A DNA stretch of 64,000 nucleotides from Gemmatales bacterium (GCA_046350055.1 JAXMBC010000001.1:510660-574659), one strand, 5' to 3'. Shown: positions 35,293-61,110, counted from the first letter of the stretch. Made by a program: numbers and translations. Notes: generated by a model from the sequence alone, not told the origin.

Positions 35293-35320
35293 GTGTCTCC
35301 AACCAATCTGTTCACTATTC

Positions 35321-35351: not shown

Positions 35352-35360
35352 GCCTGGAGG

Positions 35361-36080: not shown

Positions 36081-36147
36081 CTGGTTCCAACTTGGGTTTG
36101 CCATCTCTTGCAACACGTCTCCAACCTCAACTGAAAGGAGTTCCCCT

Positions 36148-36300: not shown

Positions 36301-36474
36301 TCATTAAAGAGGCCAGGGAAATCCCTTGGCCTCTTCTCATTTGCCTCACCTGCACTCCTAGATCTGATGTCGAGGCTTCCGTTATGTCAAGGTGTCATTG
36401 CATCATTCGAGCCTTAACGTTTATAATTTGGTACTCAACACCAAGAGAACAACACCCTGAGGGAGGTCTCCGTT

Positions 36475-37491
36475 ATGGATCGGCAAGAACGGTATGAGAT
36501 GCTTGGCTGTCTTCAATCTTCGACCAAAGCTGATAAGTATGGAGTTACATTCCAACCACCTTCCCTAAAGGATGACGAAGTACAGTACGTGATCCCTGAG
36601 CCTCTCGTCGACGCTATTTCAGGCTCTCGACGGGGGTGGCTGTCAGAACAAGAGATTGAGCTAGAGATGTTCTTTGCTCAACTCTGCCGACGCGTTGGAA
36701 TCGTGGGATTCGGATGCGGGGGCGGGGTGCGTTATCCACTTTTGGAATCACTGAATCGGAAAACAACAGGACTCCACGAACGGTTTGAAGCACACCAATG
36801 TGTGATGCAGTTTGCAAACCGCGTCATTGACCAGTTCAACGTACCACAATTGGCGTTTCTAGGCTGGTTGACGAAACACTCCCCGTATCAAAAGGATCGG
36901 TTGAGATTATTGCGCAAATGGCGAAAACTCGGTTCTAATCCAACGTATCTAACTGGTCGCAATCATTTGCGACAGTATCGAACTATGCCTGCTCAAATGC
37001 AATATGGATCTGGCTTGCATCCAGAACTCTGTAATGACTTTTTAGCTTTCTATCGGAAGTGGGATTTGAATGGAATGACCACCTGGGATTTACCTCTCCA
37101 ACAGGAACCCAATTTAGGTGGCCCTGGAGAACTGGGAGCACTCATGGAACTGAACCGTAACCCTACCATTCAGGTACCAGCCACCATGAAACTACCATCC
37201 AGACTTCCACTTCAAGAACTGCTCGAACAACAACCACCTGACCACTTGGCACCATGGCTAGAGATCTTGAAAAGGAACCAGACCAAACGATGGGCAGAAG
37301 GTTTTATTATTCACTTCTACCAGGACATTATTCTCAAGCGTATCTTCGGCAAAGAGTTGCATCGATGCCAGAGTAAGCTGGACAACATCCTGGCAATCGC
37401 TTTCAGTTTCGAGGCACCGATCAAGGCAATGAAGAAGATGCCTGTTGATTCAATAAAAAAAGTTAGACAGGCTTTCCAAAGAAGCGAGTAA
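36475..37491 (+). CDS. Hypothetical protein (338 aa)
   Basis: Long ORF with coding-like composition and no recognised motif. Confidence 0.5.
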   Translation: MDRQERYEMLGCLQSSTKADKYGVTFQPPSLKDDEVQYVIPEPLVDAISGSRRGWLSEQEIELEMFFAQLCRRVGIVGFGCGGGVRYPLLESLNRKTTGLHERFEAHQCVMQFANRVIDQFNVPQLAFLGWLTKHSPYQKDRLRLLRKWRKLGSNPTYLTGRNHLRQYRTMPAQMQYGSGLHPELCNDFLAFYRKWDLNGMTTWDLPLQQEPNLGGPGELGALMELNRNPTIQVPATMKLPSRLPLQELLEQQPPDHLAPWLEILKRNQTKRWAEGFIIHFYQDIILKRIFGKELHRCQSKLDNILAIAFSFEAPIKAMKKMPVDSIKKVRQAFQRSE

Positions 37492-37543
37492 TACATCGCA
37501 ATTCGAAGAATGAGGCAAATTCGGCTTCTCGGACTGGCCTCGT

Positions 37544-39309: not shown

Positions 39310-39334
39310 AGCGGAGAGTCCCCCCCTCTCCGCT
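39310..39334. repeat. C-rich hairpin containing a 16-mer shared with 60869-60884
   Basis: AGCGGAGAG-tcccccc-CTCTCCGCT (9-bp stem) lies between the two convergent integrase genes. TCCCCCCCTCTCCGCT recurs at 60869. Confidence 0.5.
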
Positions 39335-39560
39335 GTTTGAGAATACCATCCGCGCAAACCCCTTGATTTCAGGCCTTTCTAGCGTTGCCATGAGCTGGCT
39401 CCTTGTCATTGTGCTGAAACTGTGCTGAGCACATCCAGCGGGTTTTCAAGCTTTCGGTCTGTCCTACAGGCCAGCGTGGCGGCAGTTTTCACTGCCGCCA
39501 CCACTGATCTTCACCTGATTGCTTCTAGCCTGCGTGCATCCCTGCAGCGGCCTCCGACTC

Positions 39561-40706
39561 CTAGGCGGATTTGTTCTCCACACCTCCTTGCTGAGGACGC
39601 AGGATCGGCTGATTCATCAGACTATCCATCGCAGCCTTTGCCACATGGTCATGGGTCTTGGCGTAATGACGCAAGATTTCTTCATCGACATGTCCTACCC
39701 ATGAGCGAACCGTTGTCTCAGATGCCGTTTTTCCCGAAAGCGCATACGAGATAAACGAGTGCCTGAAGGTGTGAAGATGTCCCGGTAAACCGAGTTGCTT
39801 GAGTACCTTTTTCAATCGCCCCAGCAATCGTTTTTCACTCCATTGCTTTCCTTCGATTCGTTGCTGCTGCGTCACTGGCATCGTCATTACCCAGGCACTG
39901 ATCCGAGGCATAGACGTAAACATATCCCGTAGTTTGTTGGACATCGTGATCACTCGTTGATCGCCCGACTTTGGCTTCCAGCCTTCCTTAGCCCGGATAT
40001 GGATGATCTCTTTCTCGAGATCTAGATCCTCCCATTTCAACCAAGCTAATTCTCCAAACCTAGCTCCCGTATGCGCCAGAAAAGTCAACTCTGACTTGAT
40101 GTTCTCGGGAGAGGCATCAATTATCATGTTGACTTGTTCCCAAGTCCAACATGGCTGAATCGCTGCAACGGGCTCAGGATTACTAAGTCCTTCCAGGGGA
40201 TCCTCAGCAATGAGCTTTCGTTTCAGGCAAAAGTTGATCCAGGTACGAATGATCATGACCTCGTCATGAATCGTTTGCTCCCCAGGCGGTTTTTTGGCCT
40301 TTGAACGAGCAATCCTGTATTGATCCACAAAGAGCAGATTCACTTGGCTGAGCTTTGTGCATTTCTGGAGATTTGCCAGATTCGCGACACGATCCATCAC
40401 CAATTGATACTTCCCAAGGGTCTTACGAGCCCGACCATTGACCCTGAGTTGATCCAAGTAAAGCTTCTGCCCTTCGGCAATCGACTTTACGGTTTGCTTG
40501 GCTTGGAAAGTTCCCTCATTGAGTTGCACCTCGATCTTCATTGCTCGAGCGCGGGCTTCCTTCTTGTTGGTTGTTTTCATCGAGTCGCGCTGCTGACGAC
40601 CGTCTAGTTGATAATTCGCGTACCACTTTCGGCCACGCTGGAAGATACTGACAAGTTCGCCTATCCGCTCACTGTCGCGATTGGGTTTGTGGGATTGTTC
40701 CGACAT
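39561..40706 (-). CDS. Tyrosine recombinase/integrase
   Basis: ATG 40706 (GGAGAA upstream). Motifs are 'TGARFGELAWLKWEDLD' and 'HLHTFRHSFISYAL...GHVDEEILRHY' (R, HxxR, H, Y). Confidence 0.85.
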   Translation of the reverse strand: MSEQSHKPNRDSERIGELVSIFQRGRKWYANYQLDGRQQRDSMKTTNKKEARARAMKIEVQLNEGTFQAKQTVKSIAEGQKLYLDQLRVNGRARKTLGKYQLVMDRVANLANLQKCTKLSQVNLLFVDQYRIARSKAKKPPGEQTIHDEVMIIRTWINFCLKRKLIAEDPLEGLSNPEPVAAIQPCWTWEQVNMIIDASPENIKSELTFLAHTGARFGELAWLKWEDLDLEKEIIHIRAKEGWKPKSGDQRVITMSNKLRDMFTSMPRISAWVMTMPVTQQQRIEGKQWSEKRLLGRLKKVLKQLGLPGHLHTFRHSFISYALSGKTASETTVRSWVGHVDEEILRHYAKTHDHVAKAAMDSLMNQPILRPQQGGVENKSA

Positions 40707-40784
40707 AGATTCTCCGAGTTCGAATGTTGACAAGCATGTCAACGCGGGTGTTGTTGGGAAAAACATGAGCCATCCGAGAGGATG

Positions 40785-43150: not shown

Positions 43151-46100
43151 CTAGGAGCCGCTTAAGTAGTTGTCATTCTCCTCCGATTGGAAAATGGTAG
43201 CAAGCATAGACGAAGCACCGGTGGGTCGAATTATTCGCCAGCGAAGACACCCACGCTGGGCTTTTAAGTGCGGTTCCCAGAGTTTAAGGTAGGTGGTTAG
43301 GTACTGCCCCAACTCCGTCCCGTTCGTCCGTTCCATTAGATCGTTTAAGCGGCCATGTTTGGGTAGTGTGTCAGGCCAGTCTAGTGGCTGCACCGCCTCG
43401 CTTTCCATTCCCTTGTAGTAAAGGTCAAGGCTCAGGGTGCACAATTCAGTGATGCATTCACGCTCTACATCAGTGAGCTCAAAAAGATCGAACACCACCT
43501 GGTCAAGCTGTCCCTCAAGACCCCTGATCAGTTCGGCGCGTTCCACTTGGGCGATACCCTTGTCTGCAAATAACCGGTTAGGGTCTGTCGCTGGAGGGAT
43601 CTCACGAAGTGTATCTACGATTCGCACGATTTTGTTTTGAAGGCTCACCTTTTTGGGAAACCGTACCGGAAGACTGTACAAAACATCTTTCTTTACTTCG
43701 TCATGCCAGAGGCCCCAAGTCCCCGATGTTAGGAATAGGTAGTACCTCGTGAGAGACGACCATAGAATCGCGAGTAGAACCTTCGCTTTGTCCTCACCCA
43801 ACTCTGAAACCGGTACGCAGTGGATCGAGTCTTTAAAAGCAAATGGCTTAGTTTCAAACCTGGCAGCGATCTGCCCGTCAAGCCCAGCCGATTGGTCGAT
43901 ACCACGTTTTATTAGGAGGCGAGGACCTTCATAGATGAAACGTTCCCTACGACGGTGAACCTTAGTAGGCGCGTCCTCAAATTCGTCAGATGGCATCGGG
44001 CTATACCGTTCGAACAGTTTGGTGGGAAATACCTTGAATTCTAGTAACCAATCACTCGGATCTTTGCGTGATGCGACCTGAAATCCTACCCGCATCTTCG
44101 ATTCGTCAGGGTCAACTGCCTTCTTGAAGGACTCTTCAAGCCGCAAACGCTGGATTAATGCACGGTCACGATTCGTCCCCCACCAATAAATCTTCCATAA
44201 TGTTTCGTCGGACAGGAACTCATCTTGTACACCGTAACAGAAGTCCGCTCGGTTGAGTACAACTGCTTTGACGTGTCGGATTAGTGCGGTTTCCTTCGCT
44301 GCCCAATAACTAAACGAGCTTCCGATTTTTGGCCGTACATTATCGAATATGACTGCGGCGAATGGAGCAATCGAGCCCTGACCATCTTCCTCGTCCTTGT
44401 CCTCGTTCTGAAAGTATGCGTCGCGCACTGCGGCAAAGTTAATCACCTTTTGTAAGGTAGCCCCGGTCAGCCACTGTTCGCGAAACTTTCGCGTCTTGTC
44501 GCCACGTTTGAAAAATACCCCTGTTGAGACAAGTAACCCTGCTCGACCGTTAGGACGAAGCAGGTCAAGGCTTCGGTGAATAAAACTCTGTGAGCGCTCT
44601 TTGTCACCGAGCGAAAAACCTCGAGCCTCACACCATTGAACGCCACCATCCGACCTCAGTTCGTCGGGCACATCGGCGCGCGGCGAGCCCCACGGCGGGT
44701 TCCCCACCACAATGTCTGCACAATCTGTGAGAAAGCGGGTTCGCACCGCTTCGCTGACGATGGTGTCATCGATCTGGAACGCATCTTCAGCTAGCAGAAT
44801 GTCGAAGTGGATCTTCGGGTCGGTCTTAGTCCGAACCGAGTATGTGAGGCACGGAAGTCTATGCTGAAGGATGTCGGGCGGTTCGAGATAGTGGAGCATA
44901 GCCAGGTAAAGACTAAATGCCGTGACCCTAACTGCTTCAGGGTTAATGTCGATCCCCGCGATCTGGTCCCGCAGTATTACTCGTAGTTCGTCGGGCCGCA
45001 GACGTCGGCGTAGCTCTCCGACTCTATGTCTAACGATCCGGCGGAACGTCTCAACGAGAAAAATTCCCGAACCACATGCGGGGTCAATCACTCTAGGTCG
45101 TTTTGCCAACTCATTCTGCCCGAGGATTGCGACAGAACAAACTCAACCAACGCGGCAGGAGTGTAGTAGCTACCATCGTCCCGCTTCTGACCGGGTTTCG
45201 TGCTGTAGAACTTTTCGTAGATACTGCTGATTAGCTCGATCGGGATGATTTCGAACCGGTAGGCGAAGAAGAACAGATTATCGTCCACGTTGGCGAGCAG
45301 AAGTTTGCGAAGAAGTTTCAGGTGATTCTCAGTAACTGCCCGAAACTCCTCAGCATCCACAGGAAACATGTCCCCGTTGAAGTCATCAGAGAGCTGAGTG
45401 AACAGAGCATAGGTAAATGCTTTGTTGCTCAGGACGGCGGGGTAGAATACTCGGCGACCAGAACCTGCTGCAAACGTATCCAAGTTTTCGTCCAACAGCC
45501 TCGGCCACTTCGCTTTGTCGCCCTTAGCTACCTTTCGGAAGTAATCCTCTATGAGCACTCGACGGTCTTCGAGGTAGCGAATAAAGATCGAGCGACCGAT
45601 CAATGCGTGCGCGTATGTGGCGGAGAGACCTGCATTAATAAGTGCACTCCGCACCTTCCCGAGGTCCCGAATAAGTGCTCGGTCGGCCCGGTCACCGGAG
45701 CCAAATCGCTCGTCTTCGAACAAGCGCCCTGACTCTACCTGATCGCGTCGGTAGTTGGCAAGCTTGTCCTGGACATCTGCTGTGGTCTTGACTGCGGCCA
45801 ACAGTCGTTCGCTCCGGTATCGATCGTCGCTCTTTCGGGATGGCCTAACCGTAAGATTGAAGACGCACAGTTCACCATCACGAGCAAGGAATAACATCTG
45901 CGGGCGCGCCATGCACCAGCTAGAGTTGAAATACCCTAACCAGTCTGATGGATCGCCGGAAACCTGCTCAGCAAAGGCGATGACCGGGTAGTTGTTGACG
46001 AAGAAGACTTTCTCGGCCCCAACCTTCTTGGCGAGGGTGAGCCAGTCCCCCTTCTCGACCCAATTCGCTGGTGTAGTGTCAGTCGGACGGTCAACGGCGT

Positions 46101-46260
46101 CTTGCAGGTCACCCTCGGAAAACCCCAATCGCGAGTAAGCGACATCCAATAGCTGTCGTGATGTGTTTGACACGGCAGTAGACTGGCTCTTGCGAGGAAT
46201 ACTCAGAACTCTCATTGATAGGGTATTAGACACGAGTTGCAGGGGCAAAGTCGATGGCAT
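43151..46260 (-). pseudogene. Type IIG-like N6-adenine DNA methyltransferase (about 1035 aa if repaired), split by a frameshift
   Basis: The N-terminal ORF ends '...GSYYTPAALVEFVLSQ' (45088-46260). The C-terminal ORF continues in another frame with '(ILGQNE)LAKRPRVIDPACGSGIFLVE' (motif I) and 'VVGNPPWGSP' (motif IV). The two overlap at 45088-45109. Confidence 0.75.
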
Positions 46261-47200: not shown

Positions 47201-47287
47201 GGTCAGTGCCACCCGTGACTTTACCAGACAATTCGATACACAATACGACTCTACTACGAGACTCGAAACGGGCGAGATTGAACTAAA
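47201..47287 (-). repeat. Solo RIT terminal fragment (87 bp), cut by the IS256 fragment
   Basis: The reverse complement 'tttagttcaatctcgcccg...ggtaaagtcacgggtggcactgacc' matches the RIT ends at 7212 and 53165. Confidence 0.6.
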
Positions 47288-48175: not shown

Positions 48176-50050
48176 GTGACTACCCTCCCATCAGACCATT
48201 TAATAGTTGCGGGCCATGTCCCTTGAGCTTCACAATATCGAAAACACGCTTCGCACAGCGTTTCAATGCCCAACGGCCCTCTATCGTGATTTTTATCTTT
48301 GCACTCTAAATATGATTGCATACACTTTCTATGCCTCCTTCTGCTCGGAAAAGTCGTCGTCATAGCCATATATACAATAAATGTAACTGTAACTGTAGCA
48401 AGCAAAACCCACGGGTTAATTCGGACCAAGCATTTACCGATATTTAGCGCCCATCCTGAAGTTGTTTGTGTCCTTGTCCATGGAATAGCTAGTGCAAATA
48501 GCATTGACATTGACTGTGGCTCAGGCTCGTCCGGAGTAAGGTCCAGGCACTGCAGGTATCGTCTTATGGCATCAATCTCGCACTTTAGTCGCTTACGGTA
48601 CTCTGATATTTGCCTGCATTCTGCCATATCAATATGATATAACTCAACACAGATTGCATCAGGATGAATAGGAGGCATTTTTTGCTTATCACCATTCCAC
48701 TGCTCCCCACTTATTCCTATAGGATTATTAGAGTTAAAGGCATAGGGTAGTGACTTCCATATTGCAATGATCGGATCATACCATTTTCCTTGACTGTAGT
48801 AATCTGCCTGAATGTAGCGAAATCCACTTCCTCCTCCAAATCTGAAAGACAGTGGTACCATGCCACTGCTCGATAAGCTAGACCCAAACGCACTGTAGTT
48901 AAATACTTCTGACGTAGTGCCAATGCCATTAGTAATCTGCCTAATTGACCCAACAGAATCTCCATGGTAATATCTGGACGCGCCCACGCTGTTCACACAG
49001 TAGATTGAAAGGCATGCTAATATCGTTAGTATACGCGGCATACGTCGCACCTGATATGTCTGTATCGATCAAGCAATCGTAACGGTCAAGCGTAAAATGA
49101 CTCACATCTCCTTGCAAAGATGATTCTACCATCCTTCTGCTGCTGTCGTACAAATATGTACTGTTAATACTACTGCCTCGAATTACTCTTACCATGCAAT
49201 TATTACCATCCCACAGATTTGTGGTGCGTGTCAACGTCGGGTCGATCTGTAGCGTCTGATTGCCATTGTTGTCATAGCTGAACGTAGTCCTTCCTGAGTT
49301 GTCCTGGAACCAGTTGAGTTGATTGACAGCATCGCAGGTATAGGTAGTTCTTGCCCCCGAATCGATCATCAGCCTTCGATTCTGTGCAGCATCATAAGTG
49401 TACGTAGTGTCGTAAGCGTTCGCCCCGCTACGACGTTCTCGCGTAAGCTGATACGTCGTGTCATAGCTCCACGTCACACGATCAGCATCGGCTTCGATAA
49501 CCCGTGTCTTGTTCATGGTGTTATCGTAAGCGTAATCATACTTCGACACATACGTTCCATCGGCCCGCACATTCGCCAGTGTCGTCAGCCGATCCGCCGC
49601 ATCATAGCTGTAACTGGCCCGCACGCGATTGGCGAGCTTCTGCATCGTCCGCCTGCCTGCCACATCGTAGGTGAAGGTCGTGTTCTCCTGGAACGGATTG
49701 AGCAGTCTGGTGATCTGGCCCACGCCGTCATACCAGTAAGTAAACCGTCCACCATCCGGCTCTCGCATCTTCGCACGCTGTCCCACAGCATCGTACGCAT
49801 AGGTGATCCGTTTGGCGAAGCTGTCCGAAGCCAAGAGCGTCCGGCCCACGGCATCGAAGCTGTAGGTGTAGCGTCCCGTCCAGTCTTGTATCTTGGTGCG
49901 TTGCCCCACGGCGTCGTAGGCCTGGGTGGCTCGGGTTTGATCCTGGTACTTCCAACCGATGGTCTTGCCCTCAGTATCGTAGGCGTATTTAGTGCAATCC
50001 GCGCGGCGGTTAGAAAGAAGCGAACGGGTCTTGAGTTTTGCCAGCACCAT
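48166..50050 (-). pseudogene. Orphan rhs C-terminal cassette (5'-truncated and frameshifted)
   Basis: It begins abruptly within the YD repeats ('YAYDTEGKTIGWKYQDQTRATQ...') and is highly similar to rhs1 aa ~1235-1500. A frameshift near 49010 precedes 'SRYYHGDSVGSIRQITN...NYSAFG...WYDPIIAIW'. It ends in a novel tip with a hydrophobic segment and a Cys-rich end. Confidence 0.8.
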
Positions 50051-50219: not shown

Positions 50220-51197
50220 TTATCCTGCCTGCTGGCGTCGCACTGGAGGGTAGTGCCAAGGCAGTTTGACACCAGGCAAGAGTTGATCGAGATCATTCAT
50301 CAGTCGCTTAATGGGATGCTTCTCCACCGCTTCCTTCAGGTCATGAGCGGTGGTGTGCAGGTAGATCTGCGTGCTGCTGATCTGGCGATGGCCAAGCAAG
50401 TCACGAATGGTCACGATGCCGACGCCGGCTTTGACCAGATGCGTGGCGAACGTGTGACGCAAGCGATGCGGTGACATGGCCTTCTCGATCTTCGCCACGG
50501 CCGACCATTTGCGGACACGTTCGTAGATCGCACCACGCGTCATCTGCTTGCGTCGCAGGCTCAGGAAGAAGCAGGCCTTGGGATCGATCTCGCCACGGAC
50601 CTGGCGGTAGGCCTTCATCACAGTCATCACACGGGTATTGAGCGGCACACTCCGTTGATGCCCGCCTTTGCCCGTCACCCGGATGCATTTGTTCTCCAGA
50701 TCGACATCCTCCTCTTTCAGTGTAGAACACTCGCTCGCTCGAATGCCGGTGCCATAGAGCAGACCCAGGATGGCACGATCCCGTACCATCAACACCGTGT
50801 CCCCTGGAGGCGACCTGAGCAAGCGAGTCACTTCGTCTTCCGAGAGATACACCGGCAACTTGCTCGGTGCTGCCTTCACCTTCGGGAAGTGCACAAGTGG
50901 ATTCTCCACTGGCTTCAGATGCTCCATGGCCACCAACGCACGATAGAAGCACTTCAGGATCACCAGGCTGCGGCTCACTGCTGCTTCGGCATTCTTTCGA
51001 TCGGTGCGAAGGTACTGCAAGTACTCCAGCACGTCTCGGGCCGCCACCGCAGCTGGTGCCTTGTTCTGCAGCTTCACCTCCACATAGCTGACGAACTGAC
51101 GCAGGCTTGCTTCATAGGAAGCAATCGTCGAAGCCTTCATGCCTCGAGCCGTGCAGTGCGTTCGCAGGTATAAACTCAGGCAGTACTGCCACATCAT
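50220..51197 (-). CDS. Tyrosine recombinase (third RIT gene), intact
   Basis: 'GTGIRASECSTLKEEDVD', 'HRLRHTFATHLVKAGVGIVTIRDLLGHRQISSTQIYLH' (R, HxxR, H, Y). Confidence 0.85.
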   Translation of the reverse strand: MMWQYCLSLYLRTHCTARGMKASTIASYEASLRQFVSYVEVKLQNKAPAAVAARDVLEYLQYLRTDRKNAEAAVSRSLVILKCFYRALVAMEHLKPVENPLVHFPKVKAAPSKLPVYLSEDEVTRLLRSPPGDTVLMVRDRAILGLLYGTGIRASECSTLKEEDVDLENKCIRVTGKGGHQRSVPLNTRVMTVMKAYRQVRGEIDPKACFFLSLRRKQMTRGAIYERVRKWSAVAKIEKAMSPHRLRHTFATHLVKAGVGIVTIRDLLGHRQISSTQIYLHTTAHDLKEAVEKHPIKRLMNDLDQLLPGVKLPWHYPPVRRQQAG

Positions 51198-52095
51198 GAG
51201 GAAGCCCCTTCATCCAGGCGCTGCACAGCATCTTCCGTGTTCTGCTCCAGCACATGCAAGTACACACCCGTCTCCTGCGGGCTGCGGTGGCCCATCAATG
51301 ATGCAATCACGGCAAGGTCCACGCCGCGATCCATCAGATGGGTAGCAAAGGAATGACGCAATACTTTGGGAGTGACGCCTCCGTCCAGGCCGCCACGTGT
51401 GGCCGCTTCACTCACCACGCGGCAAATAGCATGGGCGCGTAGCCTCTTCCCCTTGTGAGATCGCAACAGGAAGCCACGCTGCCCCCTCGTTCCTGCAGGT
51501 AGGCCAGCAACTCCGTGTAGACCACCGAGGGGATCGGGATGGTTCGCTGGCGATCTCCTTTACCCTTCTCAATGAAGAGTTCCTGCCGTTCGCGGTCCAC
51601 ATCCTGAAGGCGTATATGGCAAAGTTCATCGGTGCGAACGCCACAGCCATAGAGCAGCAGAATGATGATCCTCTCTCGTCGTTCTGCTGCTGTCGTGGAA
51701 GGGCAGGCATCGACCAATCGGCGGGCTTCCTCTACCGTCAGCCAGCGTGGCTTCGCCGGTCGCTTCACATCCTGAAGAGCAAACCCATCCAGCACATTGC
51801 ACTCGCTGCGTCCTGCCCGGAAGCTGTAATCGAGCAATCCCCGCAAGTGACTCAGGTACTTCTCCAGGCTGCGAGGTGAAGTCTCTGCCAACCGCTCCGC
51901 TTCCAGCCAGGCCAGATAGACTTGGAGGGAGAGTTGCCACAGTGGCTTCTCAGCCCCATGGCCCTCCATCCATTGGCTCACTCGCTTGAGCGTGCAGCGA
52001 ACATCACGAACCGTACCGGCCGCCTTCTTCTGCACATCCTGCAAATAATGCAGGTAACTATCATACCAGGGGTTCCATGCTGCTGGAGTCTTCAT
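51194..52095 (-). pseudogene. Tyrosine recombinase (second RIT gene), frameshifted
   Basis: The N-terminal 227 aa (51412-52095) end out of frame. The catalytic C-terminus 'KVLRHSFATHLMDRGVDLAVIASLMGHRSPQETGVYLH' lies in the 51194-51466 frame. Confidence 0.75.
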
Positions 52096-53031
52096 GCAGC
52101 ACCTCCTTGTTGATCCAGGAAGTCGTTGAGCGGATGACGATCCACTGCGGCACGGCGCTGCGGATCGCTGAAGTGCAGATACCGCACGGTTGAGGTGATC
52201 ACAGCATGCCCCAGCAACCGCTGCACTTCGGGCAGATGCACGCCTGCTTCAATGAGGTCTGATGCACAGGTATGACGGAACTGATGGAGCCGATCCAATG
52301 GCACTTCCATGCGTTCTGCAATCCGGAACAGGCCTGCACCGAGCCGCCGGACCAGAGAGTCGCTTGCCACGCCGATTAATGAACAACGCGGTCTCATCGG
52401 CCTTGCCCAACTCGCGGAGATGCTCTTCCCGTTCTGGCAGATACGCTTCCATGCATCGCGCCACAATCTCTTGAAGCGGAAGACTCAGTTGCTTCCTCGT
52501 CTTCCGGGCATCGGCTCGAATCAACCCTTCCCCAGGCTGCCAGTCCTTCACGTTCAATCGCGTGATCTCACCACGACGCAAGCCCAGGCCATACAGCAGC
52601 GACAGAGCACACAGCCATTGCTTCTGCCCGAAGGAACTCTTCGAGGTGGCGGCTCCCTGCCACAGCTTGGTCATCGACTCTTTGCTGATCCGCTGTGGGG
52701 CCTTCGCATACGGATTGATCTTGGGGCCCTTCAGCCACTGCAGCGGACTCTTCTTCCAATAGCCTTCCTGCACCAGCCACACTCCAAAACACCTCAGCTT
52801 GCTCACGATGCCACTGACCGTTGCCTTCGCCTTGAACACGGAACGACTGCGAATGAAGTTCACCAGAAGCTCTGTATCGATCTCCTCCAAAGCAAGCGTG
52901 GACCGGGTTGCCAGGAGCCACGATCCAAGCCGTTCCAGTTCTCTTCTTGTTGCCTTACGTCGTTCCTCACACATCCCTCGCGCCTGGCACGCCGCCATAT
53001 ACCCTGTTGTCACCTCAAGCCACCGTCGCAT
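52092..53031 (-). pseudogene. Tyrosine recombinase (first RIT gene), frameshifted
   Basis: Start 'MRRWLEVTTGYMAAC' at 53031. The frame is lost near 52375 after 'ALFINRRGKRLS'. The catalytic C-terminus 'LHQFRHTCASDLIEAGVHLPEVQRLLGHAVITSTVRYLH' lies in the 52092-52466 frame. Confidence 0.75.
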
Positions 53032-53160
53032 TGCTCTCTCCTGTGTCACATGAAAATGAACAAAGGCACCAACCCCTAGGTCAGTGCCTACCGTGACTTT
53101 ACCAAACAATACGACGCACAATATGACGCTACTTCAAGCCTCCAAACGGACGAGATTGAA

Positions 53161-53802
53161 CTAAATAAAGGGATACTTCTCAACCGCCTCCGCCAAGACC
53201 GGCTTCATGTTCCAACTATCAGTTACAATGACGTAATCGGGCTGAAAATCATCGACTGCCTCGCGATAGCGCTGTTGAATATCTCGTAAATTCCAGTGAG
53301 TTGCATTGAATCGCAGTTCGTGGCTGATCATGGGAGTCTGCTGCTTGACAACTCCCAATTCCCATGGATCGTACCGAGCATAGTAATGCTCTACTTCGTA
53401 GCCAGCACGATTCAAGAAATCACACAGCTCCACTGTGTGGACGATGCCACCCCCGGTGGAAGGCCAGTTGAACAGAAAACTCAGCACAGCAATGCGCGCT
53501 CGCGTTTTCTTCGAAGGGAGTGGGGCTTGTCCCGCTACACCGAATCGATCTGCAGCCAGCAGTTCGTAGTTCCATCGTGCAACGTCATTGCCTGAGTCCA
53601 GTTGCAATGCTTCCTGAAATGTGGACATACTCTCGGGATGATCACCGAGGCTTCTCAAGACCCCTAAGTGGGCCATCCATCGACTACGATCCTGGGCGTT
53701 ATTAGCCTTTTTCAACTCTTCATCGATCAGAATTTCAGCGTACGACCATTTGCCCGAACGAAGGAGCGACTTGAGCTTCGCCGTGGAATCCATGTGTACC
53801 AC
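53161..53802 (-). pseudogene. TPR plus GT4-type glycosyltransferase N-terminal part, truncated by the RIT insertion
   Basis: 'RIAVLSFLFNWPSTGGGIVHTVELCDFLNRAGYEV' is a GT-B/GT4 N-domain start. The ORF ends in the TAG contributed by the RIT terminus (tttAGttc on the minus strand). Confidence 0.6.
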
Positions 53803-54803: not shown

Positions 54804-55282
54804 TGCTTCTCCAAAGAAGGTCGTGGAGGAGTTTGGCGGAAAGGGCGTTTCTTGATGTAGGACCAGACCAAACGCAAGAGGTTGGCGACTACGAACACCA
54901 CACTGGCAACAACCAAGGTATCCAATAGTGCAAACAGATCGAACGGACGCACCGTCGTTACCTTGTGGATGCACACCACCATGGGGAGGATGGTCAAAAT
55001 CCACAGCTCAACACCATGGGCGTTGCCTCCACCCAATTGATGCAGCCAGCTTCGATCAATTGATCGCTGTAACGCCTCTTGCTTGTATTCAGACCATAGC
55101 AAGATGAAGAGACGCTGGAGCACGAGATACCCCAGAACGGCAAGGAGTACCACCACGCCAGTGATGGAAACAGGGTGATGCCAGAGTAGAAACGCCAATT
55201 GCTGGAGAGCGATGGCTACGATCGCCAGAACAACAACGATCTTGGCAACGAGTGCCCAGTTCCGTTTAGCATCGTGACACAT
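54800..55282 (-). CDS. Four-TM membrane protein
   Basis: 160-aa ORF with four hydrophobic segments, translationally coupled to the downstream GYF gene. Confidence 0.55.
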   Translation of the reverse strand: MCHDAKRNWALVAKIVVVLAIVAIALQQLAFLLWHHPVSITGVVVLLAVLGYLVLQRLFILLWSEYKQEALQRSIDRSWLHQLGGGNAHGVELWILTILPMVVCIHKVTTVRPFDLFALLDTLVVASVVFVVANLLRLVWSYIKKRPFRQTPPRPSLEKQ

Positions 55283-55354
55283 GACACATCACCCGACAAT
55301 AATGTCACTTATAGTCGATACACCTATAGTCTACATCATTGTAACGTCGATGCA

Positions 55355-55594
55355 ATGGCTCGACGTCCTTCTGCCACTGATATTCGGGTACGCTTCGGCT
55401 TCGTGATCCGGACGCTGCGTGAAGCCAGAGAACTGACACAAGAAGAACTGGCGGAACGCTCAAGAATCCATCGGACTTACCTGAGCGATATCGAACGTGG
55501 GTCGCGCAACGTGGCCCTGATCAACATCGAACGCTTGGCACAAAGCTTGTCGGTCAGCCTGGGTGACCTGTTTCGCCGAGTGGATCGCGCCTAG
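55355..55594 (+). CDS. XRE-family helix-turn-helix regulator
   Basis: 'IRTLREARELTQEELAERSRIHRTYLSDIERGSRNVALINIERLAQSL'. Confidence 0.8.
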   Translation: MARRPSATDIRVRFGFVIRTLREARELTQEELAERSRIHRTYLSDIERGSRNVALINIERLAQSLSVSLGDLFRRVDRA

Positions 55595-55600
55595 TTCCTA

Positions 55601-55637
55601 GCTAAAGAAAAGCCGATCCTCGCGAAGAGAATCGGCT
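55601..55637 (-). terminator. Terminator hairpin after E1 of cassette 2 (between convergent genes)
   Basis: On the minus strand, AGCCGATTCTC-ttcgc-GAGGATCGGCT (one mismatch) is followed by TTTCTTT. Confidence 0.55.
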
Positions 55638-55642
55638 GGGGT

Positions 55643-56308
55643 TCATTGGGTTACCCCTGGCAACGTCATCTCACTAGCAAGCAGGTTGAGCAACGCATCA
55701 GGCTCCACTGGTATGCCACGCAACCAGCGGCTGAACTGATGCATCATCAGCCCCGCTGCGATGGATGCGGCGTAAAGGGTACTCCGTGCGGTGCATCTCC
55801 CCACCTCCGCTTCTTCCTGGGAGAAGAGCGTAGATGGATAATGTCTTCGTGAAGCTTCGTCACCCACCGCCAATACTCGAAGCGTTTCTCCGAGCATGCG
55901 ACCATCGGCCCAGAAACGCACCTTGGAAGCAAGGGACTTCCAAATCACGCTTCGCGCACTGATGGTATCGACAGCACAGAAGACTACTTCTCCGACCGAC
56001 AGATGCTTGCGGTACACATCCCTAACAATCTGAACTTCAATAGTCTTGTCCATTCTCCGAATCGGTGACAGCAAGGAAACCGGCTTGCTCTGGCCGACAT
56101 CACGTGCTTCATATCCTTGCGTGGTAACGTTATGCAATTCCACCGTATCAGGATCGATCAATTGCAGATGCCTGGCTCCTGCTGCAGCCAGCTTCAGAGT
56201 CAAAGGCCTGCCAATTGCTCCGAGTCCGATGACCGTGATCTGAAGGTGCTCCAAGCGAGCTTGAGGCATGAGGTCAGCCTGCCTCACAAAGCGATCAGGC
56301 GTACTCAT
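55643..56308 (-). CDS. Minimal ThiF/MoeB/E1-like adenylyltransferase, cassette 2
   Basis: '[21 protein letters not shown]', '[12 protein letters not shown]', '[19 protein letters not shown]'. The protein is 221 aa and roughly 45% identical by eye to cassette 1 E1. Confidence 0.85.
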
Positions 56309-56972
56309 AGATCAGCTCCTTTTCTTCTTGATACACTTCCTGGCCCATCCATTCTTCTTCCGTGAGTTGCAGCAGCTTGGGTAGCTCCTCATCACCTCCG
56401 ATGAATTTCTCAAAACGATGAAAGGATGGTAGTTCTTCGACGCAGCGCTGATACTCGTCATACCAGGCCGAGGGATCACTGCCGCGAAAGTTCTGCTGGT
56501 AGCTGATTTCGACAGGAAGCAGGATGTCACCTGCAGGACCAGCGTGGAAGCGTAGTCGGGCATATGTCTGCCCGCCTCGCGCCAGAATGAACATCACGGC
56601 CCAGTCACTGGTGCCGAAGCAACGGGTGAAAGTGTCTTCATCGGTGGAGCTCGGTTCCGGGCAGTGCCCTGGATGCGTATGCACCCAGATGCGTGCACTG
56701 GCTTCCGGCGTAACACCACGGTCCACCATAGCATCGAAGTAGTCCGCCACGGACGCATCCTCAAAGCTCACGGTGCCGACGGTGGTTTGTTGCTTGACCA
56801 GATGAATATCCTGGATGAGCAGCAGATCACTGGGATCGGTTTCGGCAAAGCCACCGACTTCGGTGGTGCCGATATCACGCAAGAACAGCAACTTCGCCCA
56901 AGCATAGGGCGTGAGCCTCAGGGCCGGCTTGGTCGTCTTCCTCGTCATCTGGCGATTCAGTCGACTCGTCAT
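56295..56972 (-). CDS. JAB/JAMM (MPN+) metallopeptidase, cassette 2
   Basis: 'GTTEVGGF' and '[18 protein letters not shown]' (HxHx7Sx2D). The start is taken as 'MTSRLNRQ' (56972). Confidence 0.85.
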
Positions 56973-57924
56973 ATTCAGTCTCCTCGTTGGGTTGGCAGTT
57001 AGGACATAGACCATCGAACAGGCATGCATCGCAGCCATCCGCCATACAGGCGGAACAGTGGATCATGCAGTGGGCACAGAAGTTGTCTCCACAGATCGAG
57101 CATGGCTTGATGCAGCCCTGACATCTGGGATCGGTACAGTTGGAGCAGTACCCGGTGCAGTCGAGACAAACCAGATCGTCACAGCAAGGACATGTGATAC
57201 CTTCACTGGTCTCCACCATGGCTGAGCAACTTTGGCAGGGTGTACCGAACCACTTGTCCATCGCGTGGTATGCGCTGTCTGGGTTGTAAGTAGTCAGGAT
57301 CTGCTGCACGATAAGGAAGAAATCAAACAAGCGTCCTTGCTGAAGCGATTGCTTGATGGATAAGGCTCCATCTCCTTCACACAGATACTCGTGACTGACA
57401 TGAGGATGCACCATCTCCTCGTTGACTTCGGCGGGATTGGGATCGAGTGCCTTGATGCGATAACAGTGGCGTTGACCCAACTTTCTCCATTCCAGGATGA
57501 CCTGAAACCGTCCAAGCTCGATTCCCTCGAACACCATGCTTGGGATGGTGACACGAAGTTCGGACTTCTCCAGGTCACACTCGACCTCCTCGAATTCTTC
57601 TTCGAGGTACTCCAGCTCACGCCAGAGTTCAGGAAGCGTTATAAGCCCAACTTGCTCTCGTTGTTGCTTGAGAGCACTTTGCAAGCTCTGAGCGTAACCA
57701 GCTAAGTCTGTTAGCAATCGCTCAAGATCGTCAGCCAACTCAGCCTGAGCATGGAGCCACTGGGCATCAAGAGTCGTTTGATGGAGTAGCATTCTGGTGA
57801 GCAGCCTACTCCAGATCATGTGCGGCAATTCCAAAGTGTCCCGTGAGAGACGGGCCTGGACCAGTTGCCGATGAATCCGGAGAGCTGCTCGCCAGCGCTG
57901 ACGTTGGTCATTTGACCATGACAT
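56875..57924 (-). CDS. E2 (UBC)-like protein with a C-terminal poly-CxxC domain, cassette 2
   Basis: It contains 'EEMVHPHVSHEYLCEGD'. aa 230-310 carry ten CxxC motifs with the same 7/8-residue spacing as cassette 1, followed by an acidic tail. Confidence 0.65.
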   Translation of the reverse strand: MSWSNDQRQRWRAALRIHRQLVQARLSRDTLELPHMIWSRLLTRMLLHQTTLDAQWLHAQAELADDLERLLTDLAGYAQSLQSALKQQREQVGLITLPELWRELEYLEEEFEEVECDLEKSELRVTIPSMVFEGIELGRFQVILEWRKLGQRHCYRIKALDPNPAEVNEEMVHPHVSHEYLCEGDGALSIKQSLQQGRLFDFFLIVQQILTTYNPDSAYHAMDKWFGTPCQSCSAMVETSEGITCPCCDDLVCLDCTGYCSNCTDPRCQGCIKPCSICGDNFCAHCMIHCSACMADGCDACLFDGLCPNCQPNEETEYDESTESPDDEEDDQAGPEAHALCLGEVAVLA

Positions 57925-57939
57925 GTTGGCCCTTTCGTA

Positions 57940-57976
57940 ATGTTGAAACGAAACGAGCGGCCACCTTGAGCCGCTC
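57940..57976 (-). terminator. Terminator/attenuator-like hairpin between Ubl and E2, cassette 2
   Basis: On the minus strand, GAGCGGC-tcaaggtg-GCCGCTC is followed by GTTTCGTTTC, 21 nt after the Ubl stop. Confidence 0.5.
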
Positions 57977-57996
57977 GATCTGATCGCTTGACGGGG

Positions 57997-58215
57997 TTAC
58001 TGAGCCCCTTCAATCTTGACAGCGGTGATCGACACACGGTCACCTTCCTGCAAAACCTGATCCGCTGAAGCCGGCTGTCGATTGACTCGGATCAGATATG
58101 ACGACGGGTCGCCCTTGATCTTGGCGTCGAAGAGTTGCCGGACCGTGGTACCTACTTCGATGGCTAGGTAATCCGCGAAGCCGGCACCCTGGTTGTTGAT
58201 GAACAAAATCCTCAT
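57997..58215 (-). CDS. ThiS/MoaD-like ubiquitin-like protein, cassette 2
   Basis: 72 aa. '[31 protein letters not shown]|AQ'. It is roughly 55% identical by eye to the cassette 1 Ubl. Confidence 0.7.
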
Positions 58216-58285
58216 GTGTCTCTCCTTGGGTAAACGAAAGCAGCCACCCCACCTTGGGATGGCTTGATGCGGCAGAACGTGAAAC

Positions 58286-58483
58286 TCAAAACAAACGCCG
58301 ATAGCGCACCCGGCGTTGATGACGGTTGCGTAGTCGCTTGCGTCGACGCAAGCGATAGGGACGAAACGTCAGATGGTTGGGCAGCAGTAATCGCTGATGA
58401 AACTGGAACCCGCTGTGTTCCAGAAAGCTCATACTCTCTCCCGTGACGCGCGCGAGCGCACGCATCAGGGCATGCCTGTTCAT
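58286..58483 (-). CDS. Arg-rich 65-aa ORF upstream of Ubl 2 (doubtful)
   Basis: ORF on the same strand between the recombinase terminator and the Ubl gene. Its tail is '[25 protein letters not shown]'. It has no homologue in cassette 1. Confidence 0.25.
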
Positions 58484-58500
58484 GGTTTCTCCTTGTTGTT

Positions 58501-58540
58501 ATCGAAAAGGAAAACCGGCAAGGACTGTGCTTGCCGGTTT
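58501..58540 (-). terminator. Rho-independent terminator after the serine recombinase gene
   Basis: On the minus strand, AAACCGGCAAG-cacagtc-CTTGCCGGTTT is followed by TCCTTTTCGAT. Confidence 0.6.
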
Positions 58541-58565
58541 GGTTGAGAATTGAACGAATCAGGTG

Positions 58566-60785
58566 CTAGGCGGCATCTTGATCTGCTTGCTTTTCACGTT
58601 CAAGACGAAGCTGCTTTTGTCGTGTTTTCCCGTGCAGCCACGGTAATCCGTGCTCCTGGTGCCATTTCTTGATCATGACTGTCACCGAATTGCGTGAACA
58701 ACCGACCATCTCGGCGATGGTTTGAATGGGTTTCCCTTCATTCCACAACTGAATCACTTGGCTTATCACAGCATCCTGAATGGGAGTCGGTCTGATGATC
58801 CTGGATCGTTTCTCTGATCCCGTTGGCACGGGAAGCCCACGCTGCACGTACCACCACATCAGGCCTTTCGCAATTGCTGCGAACTTCAGACCAAGCTTTT
58901 CAGCAATCGCGAGTGCACTTAGATTCTGATCGTACAAAGCCTTCACTTCGTCCGCACGCTGTGCCCAGATTGGTAACGGTGCAAAACAGAGTGTTACTGA
59001 TTCTGATGCGATTGGTGGCAAGTCTTTCAGCCCCAACACAGAACGAGCCAGCCGAACTGGATCTAAAGTGAACGTCCCGACAAGCTTCTTCCGTTTGAGC
59101 CCCGGAAAATCCACCTCTCTAACCGTGATACATCCAATGAGTTGACGTATCGCGACTCCTGCTCGTGCGGGATCTCCTTCGAGCAAATGATGCATCTTCA
59201 GCAGTCGCTCGATGACCCATTCACGAGTCGGAGCCTGCTTGATGTTCTGGTCATTCCCCAGAGCATCGAGTTGACGCTGAATCTCATTCAGCTCGCGTCG
59301 ACGTGCACTCAGGCGTCCAGAAACCTCAGGGCCAGCCTCACCCTGCTCGATACATTCCAGAATGGCATTGATGCGCCGGACAATATCACTGCGACGACGT
59401 TCCAGCCCTTCCCGTTCCTGTGGGTGCAATTGCTGCTGTGTGTTCCAGGCGTTTGTAACTGCCTGAAATAGCCATTCGCGTAGCTTAACGTGTTTCAGAA
59501 GAATACCGTGAAGGTATCCGACGATCTGTTCCTCCGCATACTTGCGAAGCAACGAAGTCTTCACATCGCACTGTCGACTGGGATAGCCGCTGCACTGTAA
59601 ATACAAGCCACGTAGGCCATTCATGTACAGTGGTCGGCCACATTTCTCACACTTGAACAGACCCTGCAGCATGTGACGAGGGTTTTGGAGATCGCGGACA
59701 GAACCACGCAACCTACCATTCTTTTCACGCACTATGGCGAACTTCTGTCGATCCTGCTCTCGCAGTTGCTGAGCCCGGTAAAAGAGTTCAACCTCTACGA
59801 TACGCAGGTTTGGACGTTCAGTGACCGAATAACCTTCATCACCTTCTGAGCGCAGTTCAATGGTGACATCACCCGTCAGAGGGTTGCACTTGTTCTTCCT
59901 CTTTCCGTAGGGCCATAAACCGACGTACTTCACATTCTCGAGAATGTGGATTACGACAATCGTTGTCCAGCCGTTGGAACCAGATGCACGATGGCCGCGA
60001 GGTGCGTTCAGTCGATTGAGTTGCGTGGTGATCCAATAGACGGATCGTCCCTCATCGCAGTACCAGCGAAAGATGCGCACCACCCATTCTGCTTGAGCTG
60101 GGTCAATGTCGATGACTTTCTTAGGCCGCATCTTGCGTGCACGGCTCTGGTTGACCGATCCAGGGGCAACTACCGAGGCATAGCCATAACAATGGTCTCC
60201 GTTGGAGTTCCCGGATTTGACATTGTTTTGGTGTCCGCGCTTTACGTCTTCTGTCAGTTGCTTTATCTTGGCCTCCGCAAGGATGCAATCAAGATAAATG
60301 ATGGATTCCCAGCCCGCATTGTTCGTGTCAAAACCGTTGGCCGTGCAGATGATGCGGATCCCAAGGTTATAGACGAGGTCTTTGATCATCGGGATGCTGA
60401 TCGCGGATTCTCTCGCTAATCGCGAGATGTTCCAGATGTACATCACCTTGAACAAGCCTTTCCGGGCTGCCTCCAGGATGGCGTTTAACCCAATTCGTCT
60501 CAGCTTGCGACCGGATACTGCTTCATCCATGAACCGTAGTTCCACTGGAATGAAGTGATGATTTCGAGCAGCTGCTTGTTCGATAGAATCAAACTGCTGC
60601 TCGATGCTGCTCTCATCTTGAGACTCGCTGCTGTAGCGTGCGTAAGCCGCCGCGATCTCTTTGATGGAATCAGTCTCATTGCCTCCATCATCTGGCCGAG
60701 TAATACCGGATGAATTCTGTGCTGAAACTGTGCTGAGATTCAACCGAAACAGAGTCAGGTAGGCATATAGCACGGCAAACAACAA
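58566..60785 (-). CDS. Large serine recombinase (start codon uncertain)
   Basis: The resolvase catalytic region is 'AAYARYSSESQDESSIEQQ...ISRLARE'. A recombinase domain and a zinc ribbon ('CEKCGRPLY...LQCSGY...C') follow. The C-terminal HTH reads 'IQTIAEMVGCSRNSVTVMIKKW'. The ORF track begins at a TTG. Confidence 0.85.
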   Translation of the reverse strand: MLFAVLYAYLTLFRLNLSTVSAQNSSGITRPDDGGNETDSIKEIAAAYARYSSESQDESSIEQQFDSIEQAAARNHHFIPVELRFMDEAVSGRKLRRIGLNAILEAARKGLFKVMYIWNISRLARESAISIPMIKDLVYNLGIRIICTANGFDTNNAGWESIIYLDCILAEAKIKQLTEDVKRGHQNNVKSGNSNGDHCYGYASVVAPGSVNQSRARKMRPKKVIDIDPAQAEWVVRIFRWYCDEGRSVYWITTQLNRLNAPRGHRASGSNGWTTIVVIHILENVKYVGLWPYGKRKNKCNPLTGDVTIELRSEGDEGYSVTERPNLRIVEVELFYRAQQLREQDRQKFAIVREKNGRLRGSVRDLQNPRHMLQGLFKCEKCGRPLYMNGLRGLYLQCSGYPSRQCDVKTSLLRKYAEEQIVGYLHGILLKHVKLREWLFQAVTNAWNTQQQLHPQEREGLERRRSDIVRRINAILECIEQGEAGPEVSGRLSARRRELNEIQRQLDALGNDQNIKQAPTREWVIERLLKMHHLLEGDPARAGVAIRQLIGCITVREVDFPGLKRKKLVGTFTLDPVRLARSVLGLKDLPPIASESVTLCFAPLPIWAQRADEVKALYDQNLSALAIAEKLGLKFAAIAKGLMWWYVQRGLPVPTGSEKRSRIIRPTPIQDAVISQVIQLWNEGKPIQTIAEMVGCSRNSVTVMIKKWHQEHGLPWLHGKTRQKQLRLEREKQADQDAA

Positions 60786-60868
60786 GAAGTGTCGAACTTG
60801 TTGAACCTTATGGACTTGCGTCAGAAGTCTCGAACTAATAGGGTGTTGCGGAAGGTGGGGGGCGATAT

Positions 60869-60884
60869 TCCCCCCCTCTCCGCT
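60869..60884. repeat. 16-mer TCCCCCCCTCTCCGCT, second copy (within an imperfect hairpin at 60848-60884)
   Basis: It matches 39319-39334 exactly and lies between the serine recombinase start and the divergent efflux gene. Confidence 0.45.
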
Positions 60885-61110
60885 TGCAAGTCTTGTCGAT
60901 TGGCGTAACTGACTGAGCTACTAAGGGTTACGTCACCCATTTCATATGCAGAAACACTCGCAGGTGCACCTTGGGGGCATACGGGTGGTCTACCATTATG
61001 TCATCATGTCATCAAGGATGAGGAACTGTCTCCAGTTCTGTTAACTTAGGCAAAATCAAGGGGTTTTATGTTTTGTTTGTCGAGAAAGCCTCAACAAAGA
61101 CCCGATACCA

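Follow-up and report, generated by a model that had tools for sequence, protein, structure and literature searches.

Why would a bacterial genome carry what looks like a complete set of genes for attaching a ubiquitin-like protein to other proteins, and carry it next to a large serine integrase? The question is raised by positions 55,355 to 58,540 of a 64,000-nucleotide stretch of a Gemmatales bacterium (GCA_046350055.1 JAXMBC010000001.1:510660-574659), which we call the window and in which all coordinates are counted from the first letter. Four consecutive minus-strand open reading frames (ORFs) at 55643-58215 encode a ubiquitin-like protein (Ubl), a protein resembling ubiquitin-conjugating enzymes (E2), a JAMM peptidase and an activating enzyme (E1). 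We refer to them as cassette 2, and to a related set elsewhere in the window as cassette 1. The answer that on balance we favour is that cassette 2 is a protein-tagging operon, that it sits on a small mobile module, that it was acquired separately from cassette 1 and that it takes part in defence; the parts of this statement are not equally firm and are taken up in turn.

In the direction of transcription, cassette 2 starts with the gene for the Ubl, a ubiquitin-like beta-grasp protein of 72 residues ending in K-I-E-G-A-Q (57997-58215), followed by the 349-residue E2-like protein (56875-57924), a JAMM/MPN+ metallopeptidase (56295-56948) and the E1, a minimal adenylating enzyme of the ThiF/MoeB type with 221 residues (55643-56308). 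The ORF of the peptidase extends to 57038, and its start was placed at M31 (56948) from the family alignment. The peptidase gene overlaps both the E2 and the E1 gene, which fits one translationally coupled operon. A preliminary description, made from the sequence alone, had read the same four-gene order here as in cassette 1, and the ORFs and their BLASTP matches to cassette 1 bear this out; the catalytic motifs that it quoted can all be found in the translations. A hairpin followed by a T-run (57954-57977, minus strand; a pattern match only) lies in the 72-nt gap between the Ubl and E2 genes and is a possible attenuator, which would give Ubl in excess over the enzymes. No match to PHROGs was found for the Ubl, the E2-like protein or the peptidase. 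With good confidence, we take cassette 2 to be an intact operon whose products tag other proteins covalently with the small Ubl, that is, a Ubl-conjugation cascade.

The E1 matches the Pfam family ThiF at 6.9e-21 (74.9 bits against a cutoff of 28.1), and a profile of 30 homologues finds ThiF (5.7e-16), then UBA7, PaaA, MoeB and UBA1; MccB is also among the best matches. The protein is a single ThiF domain of 218-225 residues across the 30 homologues, with an invariant RFxRQ, GxGxxG (read as VIGLGAIG in the translation), D52/D54, K75, D114, R119, DGRM and a single cysteine, C172. The nucleotide-binding GxGxxG, the arginine finger and the catalytic aspartate that characterize a ThiF adenylation domain are thus all present. 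The metal site of the JAMM peptidase, E...HxH-x7-S-xx-D, is likewise invariant (E30, H90-x-H92, S100 and D103 in 30-33 homologues). As a single sequence the peptidase reaches Pfam Prok-JAB at 1.1e-3, below the cutoff; the closest solved relatives of its family profile are a Caldiarchaeum Rpn11-like deubiquitinase (6e-4) and the proteasomal RPN11 (0.02). It is the probable enzyme for both processing and deconjugating the Ubl.

Conservation among the four proteins is highest in the Ubl, at a mean column identity of 68% over 32 homologues. The family ends in K-I-x-G-A, in which G70-A71 is invariant and is followed by 0-4 variable residues, and 29 of the 32 members have a weak match to Pfam ThiS, the family that partners ThiF. 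An AlphaFold2 model (pLDDT 87.9) has the order beta-beta-alpha-beta-beta, and Foldseek places it with ubiquitin, ThiS, SUMO, SAMP1 and Caldiarchaeum ubiquitin (probability 1.0, TM 0.6-0.76). The model, made from a shallow alignment, and the glycine-containing C-terminal tail are together what is expected of a beta-grasp modifier.

The E2-like protein is the weak link among the four. Neither it nor the Ubl has a Pfam or PADLOC model above threshold. It consists of an N-terminal helical domain (residues 1-96), an alpha/beta core (97-225), ten CxxC pairs (228-311) and an acidic disordered tail that leads to a conserved motif. The hydrophobic consensus at this C-terminus (56875-56900) is LGEAAVxA, and reads LGEVAVLA in the window. 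In an alignment of 56 homologues H173-P174-H175 and C182 of the core are invariant, i.e. HPH-x6-C, which has the form of the UBC motif (His-Pro-Asn, with a cysteine about 7-10 residues downstream) except that His replaces Asn. The AlphaFold2 model (pLDDT 89.5) shows in residues 97-225 a helix, four strands, the loop with His-Pro-His and the cysteine, and two helices, which is the UBC order, and Foldseek with it gives a weak list dominated by eukaryotic UBC E2s (about 15, E 0.3-3, TM 0.3-0.5). The ten CxxC pairs are invariant or nearly so and would be enough for five zinc sites. They show weak similarity to B-box (1.5e-3), FYVE, TFIIH p44, RING and ZZ fingers and to Siva, and there is no recognisable C4HC3 or C3HC4 RING and no match to Pfam RING or Prok-RING. 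Searches with the family gave zinc fingers only in the PDB profile search, and Siva-type cysteine-rich matches only among Pfam families on the 56 homologues at E up to 1; with the model, viral structures gave zinc-rich and low-quality matches only. The call as an E2 is based on the invariant HPH-x6-C, the modelled fold topology and the operon context.

A working order for the cascade can be proposed from these features. The XRE-family protein encoded next to the operon may hold it in check. The JAMM peptidase would trim the Ubl precursor after the invariant Gly70 or Ala71, by analogy with BilC and BilA and with Caldiarchaeum Rpn11 and its ubiquitin. A dimer of the E1, in which the adenylation residues are intact, would then adenylate the new C-terminus and may hold the Ubl on the invariant Cys172, before it would be handed to the invariant Cys182 of the E2-like protein, six residues after HPH. 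The N-terminal helical domain and five-zinc array of the E2-like protein could replace a ligase (E3) and choose the target lysine, and the peptidase could also reverse the tag.

On the far side of the Ubl gene from the rest of the operon lies a large serine recombinase (58566-60785, minus strand; 735-739 residues with a C-terminal helix-turn-helix, HTH), and on the other side, convergent with the operon, the gene of the XRE-family HTH regulator (55355-55594, plus strand; Pfam HTH_3 1.6e-14), which has the same place in loci L002 and L043. These flanks, including a terminator on the recombinase side, are as the preliminary description gave them. The recombinase matches Pfam Resolvase (2.3e-21), Recombinase (2.4e-13), Zn_ribbon_recom and HTH_23, carries the catalytic-serine motif YARYSSESQ and matches the integrase family phrog_95 at 4.5e-69; it has the resolvase, recombinase and zinc-ribbon parts of a large serine integrase. 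Directly 3' of its stop codon is a strong terminator-like hairpin with a T-run (58512-58540, minus strand), and another terminator-like hairpin lies between the convergent genes after E1 (55611-55637, minus strand). Between integrase and Ubl there is also a basic 65-residue ORF (58286-58483, minus strand), which the preliminary description did not list. It has no Pfam or PHROG match, its protein is kept in L001, L002 and L003 (33-66% identity), and it might act as a directionality factor or as a small regulator.

The limits of this unit are indicated by comparison with other loci. Compared with L001, L002 and L043, the window loses DNA similarity at 60886 on the integrase side; compared with L002 and L043 it does so at 55298 on the XRE side, and the sequence beyond these points differs in each locus. 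Shared ends with unlike flanks mean that the unit is about 5.6 kb (55298-60886, minus strand), made up of integrase, 65-residue ORF, Ubl, E2-like protein, JAMM peptidase, E1 and convergent XRE gene, with the operon as its only cargo. A mobile element should recur with constant ends in changing surroundings, and this holds for the unit in the window, L001, L002 and L043. As in other elements with large serine integrases of the phage type (phrog_95), the integrase stands at one end beside a conserved site and is followed by a small basic ORF, a repressor-type HTH gene stands at the other end, and the ends are conserved across host contexts; unlike those elements, the module has no genes for replication, transfer or virions.

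Both ends have features of their own. The non-coding XRE-side end (55299-55345) has GACTATA repeats and promoter-like hexamers and is about 100% identical to L002 and L043, compared with about 67% for the coding DNA; promoter-like sites are found at 55274-55330. It could serve as an operator, as a promoter or as a recombination half-site. About 130 nt inside the integrase-side end, where the integrase ORF has its 5' end, lies a 20-nt motif, CTCAGCACAGTTTCAGCACA (60718-60737, minus strand), which is kept with at most three mismatches in L001, L002, L043, L044, L045 and L046, where the integrases are 39-66% identical, and which is a candidate binding site for the integrase or a regulator. Sequence comparison further shows an imperfect palindrome at the integrase-side end, GCGGAGAGGGGGGG-AATATC-GCCCCCCACCTTCCGC (60848-60883, minus strand), whose first 14 bases are the reverse complement of the 3' end of a tRNA-Ser; in L027 this 14-mer is the start of a genuine tRNA-Ser(GGA), which adjoins a tyrosine integrase and a cassette. 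The integrase-side end looks like a decayed tRNA-Ser 3' end and not like a known attP, and no att core repeat was identified at the two ends of the module. The tRNA-like end is not itself a gene, as neither ARAGORN nor Rfam detects a tRNA in the window.

Second copies of the integrase-side motifs occur at 39314-39334 and 39410-39429 (corresponding to 60864-60884 and 60718-60737). They adjoin a tyrosine integrase gene at 39561-40766 and consist of an exact 20-nt repeat and a 14-mer like the tRNA-Ser 3' end, on the same strand and in swapped order, with about 50 nt of further similarity after the 14-mer. The repeated motifs may reflect tandem accretion of elements at related att sequences. We also considered that the repeats at 39.3 and 60.8 kb might delimit a 21.5-kb element with the module at one of its ends, and dropped this, as five other contexts show the integrase-side motifs as part of the 5.6-kb module.

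Integrase and cassette are found together well outside the window. The order of serine recombinase, 65-residue ORF and Ubl-E2-JAB-E1 recurs in L001, L002 and L003 (the last ends inside the JAMM gene), whose E2-like proteins are 57%, 56% and 67% identical to that of cassette 2, and L002 has the convergent XRE gene as well. The nearest recombinase relatives, 66% and 62% identical to that of the window, carry a cassette in L043, which shares the module ends of the window, and in L044; a recombinase of 39% identity does so on the contig of P0260, judged from gene sizes and a ThiF match, and so does another distant relative, in L020. In L045 and L046 a 39% identical recombinase comes with three unrelated small genes. 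The cassettes of L043 and L044 belong to a subfamily linked to the GP88 gene and nearer to cassette 1, and their modules have extra genes, so that the recombinase and cassette trees disagree: cassettes have been swapped between modules and have not strictly diverged with them. After GP88, L043 (4913-11909) and L044 (2563-7140) have three conserved genes, for proteins of about 130 and about 205 residues and a second ThiF-like protein, and in L043 a reverse transcriptase gene follows the integrase. The second ThiF gene of L043 was first considered as a possible remnant of an operon of the cassette 2 type, an idea abandoned since L044 has the same genes, which makes them a conserved sub-module.

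What would such a tagging operon do for its bearer? The most likely role, in which our confidence is about even, would be to protect the host, and with it the module, from phages or other mobile DNA, in the manner of the Bil operons, which conjugate a Ubl and protect against phage (PMC10557695). The suggestion comes from neighbouring genes only. L042 adjoins DISARM-like genes, and the 119 immediate neighbours in 37 loci include Wadjet JetC/JetD, AbiEi/AbiEii, a type III restriction enzyme, CapP (in two loci) and a DruE-like helicase. We also counted toward this context the two to four copies of the cassette per metagenome-assembled genome (MAG), and the methylase and several integrases of the island in the window.

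A number of observations weigh against the answer given at the outset. The Ubl model was built on an alignment of two sequences, and of the five models made, four had lower confidence. The best Foldseek E-value of the E2-like model to any E2 is 0.3, with TM 0.38-0.50; of the 56 E2-like homologues not one reaches an E2 or Prok-E2 family of Pfam with E allowed up to 1, and hhalign of the family with four human E2s (approximate sequences) gives a probability of 0.5%. No Bil or ISG15-like model of PADLOC v2 matches cassette 2, in which E1 and JAB match CBASS-type models only, JAB weakly. As to mobility, which is deduced from comparison, the analysis found neither an empty site nor a target duplication nor an excision junction; 24 metagenome loci with an orthologue of the neighbouring outer-membrane protein gene all lack the module, but their upstream flank is not conserved either. 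The counts of defence neighbours have no background control, many loci have housekeeping neighbours, e.g. L041, and no target protein is known.

Another view of the function is that the cassette serves the mobile module itself, by tagging host or element proteins so as to stabilise the element (through an addiction-like opposition of E1/E2 and JAMM activities), to control integration and excision, or to counter host defences. A role of this kind was speculated on for mobile E1/E2/JAB clusters by Iyer et al. 2006 (PMC1779556), and it would suit the tight pairing with the integrase in the window, L001, L002 and L003, where the cassette is the only cargo, as well as the integrases of 39-66% identity that carry it in most contexts examined. 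Yet cassettes occur with serine integrases, with tyrosine integrases, or with neither within 6 kb (most of the 38 genome loci; a recombinase lies within 6 kb in about 17 of 45 loci examined), and this variety argues against a role specific to one recombinase. The related integrases of L045 and L046 moreover carry other cargo, and the known defence genes nearby fit the habit of defence islands. We regard service to the module as unlikely, and prefer defence of the host.

A pathway that ends in no protein tag at all is more improbable still. Here the ThiS-like protein would be adenylated by the ThiF-like enzyme to give a thiocarboxylate or a modified small molecule, in a sulfur-carrier or peptide-modification pathway with the cysteine-rich protein as a metal or redox partner. 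The best sequence matches of the Ubl are indeed to the ThiS family, those of the E1 include ThiF, MoeB, PaaA and MccB, and the E2 assignment has no profile support. But the cassette has no conserved neighbour for ThiG, MoaE, rhodanese or any other function in sulfur transfer or biosynthesis, the Rpn11-like JAMM peptidase is always present, the cysteine-rich protein has its invariant HPH-x6-C in a UBC-like topology, the Ubl ends in Gly-Ala and a variable tail like the processed Ubls of conjugation systems, and the cassette is carried on integrase modules.

Given a tagging operon on a module, it can be asked how one genome came to hold two of them. Cassette 1 belongs to a module at 32162-39058 on the plus strand, with genes for XRE (32162-32377), Ubl (32644-32874), E2 (32948-33991), JAMM (about 33981-34631), E1 (34618-35292), GP88 (35361-36080; PF17338, phrog_1392, with a cysteine-rich N-terminus), a 338-residue protein (36475-37491) and a tyrosine integrase (37544-39058). 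The two cassettes are thus linked to recombinases of different classes, as had been proposed. Between them BLASTP finds 56% identity for the Ubl (E 5e-28), 39% for JAMM (1e-46), 43% for E1 (2e-60) and, for the E2, 35% over the C-terminal 217 residues (4e-44) and 28% over the full alignment. This similarity is far beyond chance. The preliminary estimate of 45-55% was therefore too high for E2, JAMM and E1, and only the Ubl is not below it.

Each cassette has nearer relatives elsewhere. The E2 of cassette 2 is 55-67% identical to P0002-P0006, and that of cassette 1 is 93% identical to a protein of a Gemmatales MAG (P0078), 84% to P0079 and 52-64% to P0080-P0095. Neighbour-joining with 102 E2 proteins recovers the clades of cassette 2 with P0002-P0006 and of cassette 1 with P0078-P0095 in 200 of 200 bootstraps each and the two cassettes as sisters in none of the 200, and the identities of Ubl, JAMM and E1 rank the relatives as the E2 does. 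The arrangement of the window, with GP88 and a tyrosine integrase after the cassette, is kept in the cassette 1 relatives L047 (84%) and L048 (55%); GP88 is always 3' of E1 in this subfamily (35361-36080 in the window, 5882-6595 in L047, 9919-10623 in L048) and is absent from cassette 2. Neither of the two refuting checks named in the preliminary description, a phylogeny and the co-inheritance of recombinase and cassette, went against its proposal of mobile cargo acquired twice, which is supported also by the module ends shared with other loci. From these comparisons it appears highly likely that cassette 2 is carried on a mobile module and that it entered the genome separately from cassette 1. 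That the two are instead old paralogues from an ancient duplication within the genome, with the recombinases as coincidental residents of a recombination-prone island, is very improbable: they do lie 23 kb apart in one mosaic island with at least six recombinase genes and their regions are linked by short shared motifs, but each has much closer relatives with the matching recombinase module in other genomes or samples, they fall into separate and never sister clades, and the module has kept its ends elsewhere, in different genomic surroundings.

A sequence of the TAGACTATAG type is found 20-40 nt upstream of both XRE starts (32112-32123 and 55324-55335), overlapping a TATAGT box, and for this reason the two regulators may recognise similar operators and cross-talk.

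Among known systems, the BilABCD operons of Type I and II (classes 6d and 6c of Iyer 2006; Chambers et al., PMC10557695) are a close parallel. Their four functions and the order of these, Ubl-E2-JAB-E1, are those of the cassette, and they too have a Ubl with a conserved glycine and a short tail to be removed. In Type II BilA the conserved Gly is followed by up to nine residues that are removed by BilC (PMC10557695); here G70-A71 is followed by 0-4 residues and cleavage is predicted, and the tail of the E. aridi BilA, a single Ala, parallels the G-A of the cassette family. A patchy mobile distribution near defence genes, in two loci beside the CapP regulator, is a further likeness. The differences lie in the proteins. 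BilB is defined by a catalytic Cys and a downstream His (CEHH in Type II) and has no classical upstream His (PMC10557695; PMC1779556), whereas the E2 of the cassette family has HPH before the Cys and no invariant His after C182, and in addition an N-terminal helical domain and the five-zinc array. BilD has inactive, active and Cys domains, compared with the single adenylation domain of 221 residues here, and Type I BilA has two beta-grasps, the cassette Ubl a single one of 72 residues. Unlike BilABCD, the cassette family is also almost confined to Planctomycetota. The cassette, in short, would work like Bil but lacks the Bil-specific features that could be compared.

The eukaryote-like ubiquitin operons of archaea and bacteria, such as that of Caldiarchaeum, with E1, an HPN-type E2, a small RING E3 and Rpn11 (PMC5654768, PMC6043591), resemble the cassette in other respects. 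Their E2 likewise has His-Pro-x ahead of the Cys, the closest solved relative of the cassette JAMM is the Caldiarchaeum Rpn11, the Ubl is in both cases a precursor with a C-terminal extension, and a zinc-finger module accompanies the E2. This module is a small RING E3 in those operons, and here a stretch of ten CxxC pairs fused to the E2. Unlike theirs, the cassette E1 has no ubiquitin-fold domain, and the cassette Ubl resembles ThiS and ends in G-A, where theirs resembles ubiquitin and ends in G-G. Type II CBASS with Cap2/Cap3, and Bub, share the ThiF-type adenylation domain (PADLOC E1-E2 models 3e-15; BubCD in the PDB 3e-10) and a JAB peptidase partner, but the cassette has neither a CD-NTase nor an E1-E2 fusion, and where Bub uses oxyester chemistry and a serine protease (PMC11601596), the E1 and E2-like proteins of the cassette family keep invariant cysteines. 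A bolder thought, which we find doubtful, is that the 349-residue protein is an E2 and E3 in a single chain, with a core of the HPN type fused to a multi-zinc, RING-like array for substrate recognition, and acts with an E1 of ThiF size and an Rpn11-like deubiquitinase. The pathway would then be a large, complete and uncatalogued one in Planctomycetota, distinct from Bil, Bub and CBASS and spread on dedicated integrase modules.

The family is a large one. A word-indexed search found 77 relatives of the cassette 2 E2, all annotated as hypothetical and without a Pfam domain, the named ones from MAGs of Planctomycetota, and an exhaustive search with the E2 profile (E up to 1e-30) gave at least 1,321 representatives of clusters at 50% identity. 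A scan of one genome per species yielded 38 loci, about 32 of them from Planctomycetota and one from an isolate, Planctomicrobium sp. SH661; several MAGs have two to four copies. The order Ubl-E2-JAB-E1 is identical in every one of the 38 loci that is long enough to judge. No paper describing the family was found in the literature searched, which did not cover the likeliest source, Burroughs et al. 2011.

Some members deviate from the plain cassette. In 8-11 other loci (L005, L006, L008, L009, L011, L014, L021, L024, L034, L036 and L038) it is preceded on the same strand, 0.1-5 kb upstream of the Ubl, by a conserved gene set for a classical AAA ATPase (PF00004, about 500-560 residues), a DUF1257 protein and unassigned proteins of about 314, 80 and 260 residues, and an unassigned protein of about 500 residues is often encoded 3' of the cassette. 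The set looks like a larger ancestral or alternative operon and could hold the missing target or effector. The Ubl ORF of L024 (2287-2772) has about 146-161 residues and scores like two Ubl units, and the 733-residue protein P0113 has two E2-like stretches, so that the family includes variants with a doubled Ubl or a doubled E2. The JAMM gene of a cassette is split in L001 by the reverse transcriptase of a group II intron, and in L006 a trio of tyrosine recombinases resembling that of the window is inserted inside the E1 gene.

The surroundings of the two cassettes, 29-61 kb of the window, are a mosaic of integrases, a recombinase trio, a methylase of the MmeI/Eco57I type and RHS fragments. 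The trio consists of three tyrosine recombinase genes in a row (50220-53121, minus strand), with the look of a recombinase-in-trio, and an 87-nt direct repeat of 85% identity lies around it (47201-47287 and 53079-53165, 5.9 kb apart). An RHS-repeat fragment is found at 48941-50050. The methylase region between the cassettes (43151-46260, minus strand) encodes a 652-residue N6-adenine methylase of the Eco57I/MmeI type, preceded by a 390-residue ORF without a match, and may be a type IIG or BREX-like restriction component. Further to the left, Rfam finds RNA domains of group II introns at 7827-7969 (plus strand), 13736-13880 and 15550-15690 (both minus strand), with E about 1e-14 and 3e-6, which points to two or more such introns in this left-hand part of the window.

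Only recently have bacterial Ubl conjugation systems (CBASS Cap2, Bil and Bub) reportedly been shown to be functional and to have a part in immunity, and the cassette family adds a fourth architecture to them. It combines the smallest plausible E1, an E2 with a eukaryote-like His-Pro and a zinc array of its own, and a JAMM peptidase nearest to Rpn11; if the E2-E3 fusion should turn out to be true, it would bear on how the features of E2, E3 and Rpn11 arose before the eukaryotes. The 5.6-kb module with its sole cargo is small enough to be cloned and tested in a heterologous host, and two diverged copies in one genome raise the question of whether both Ubl cascades are insulated from each other.

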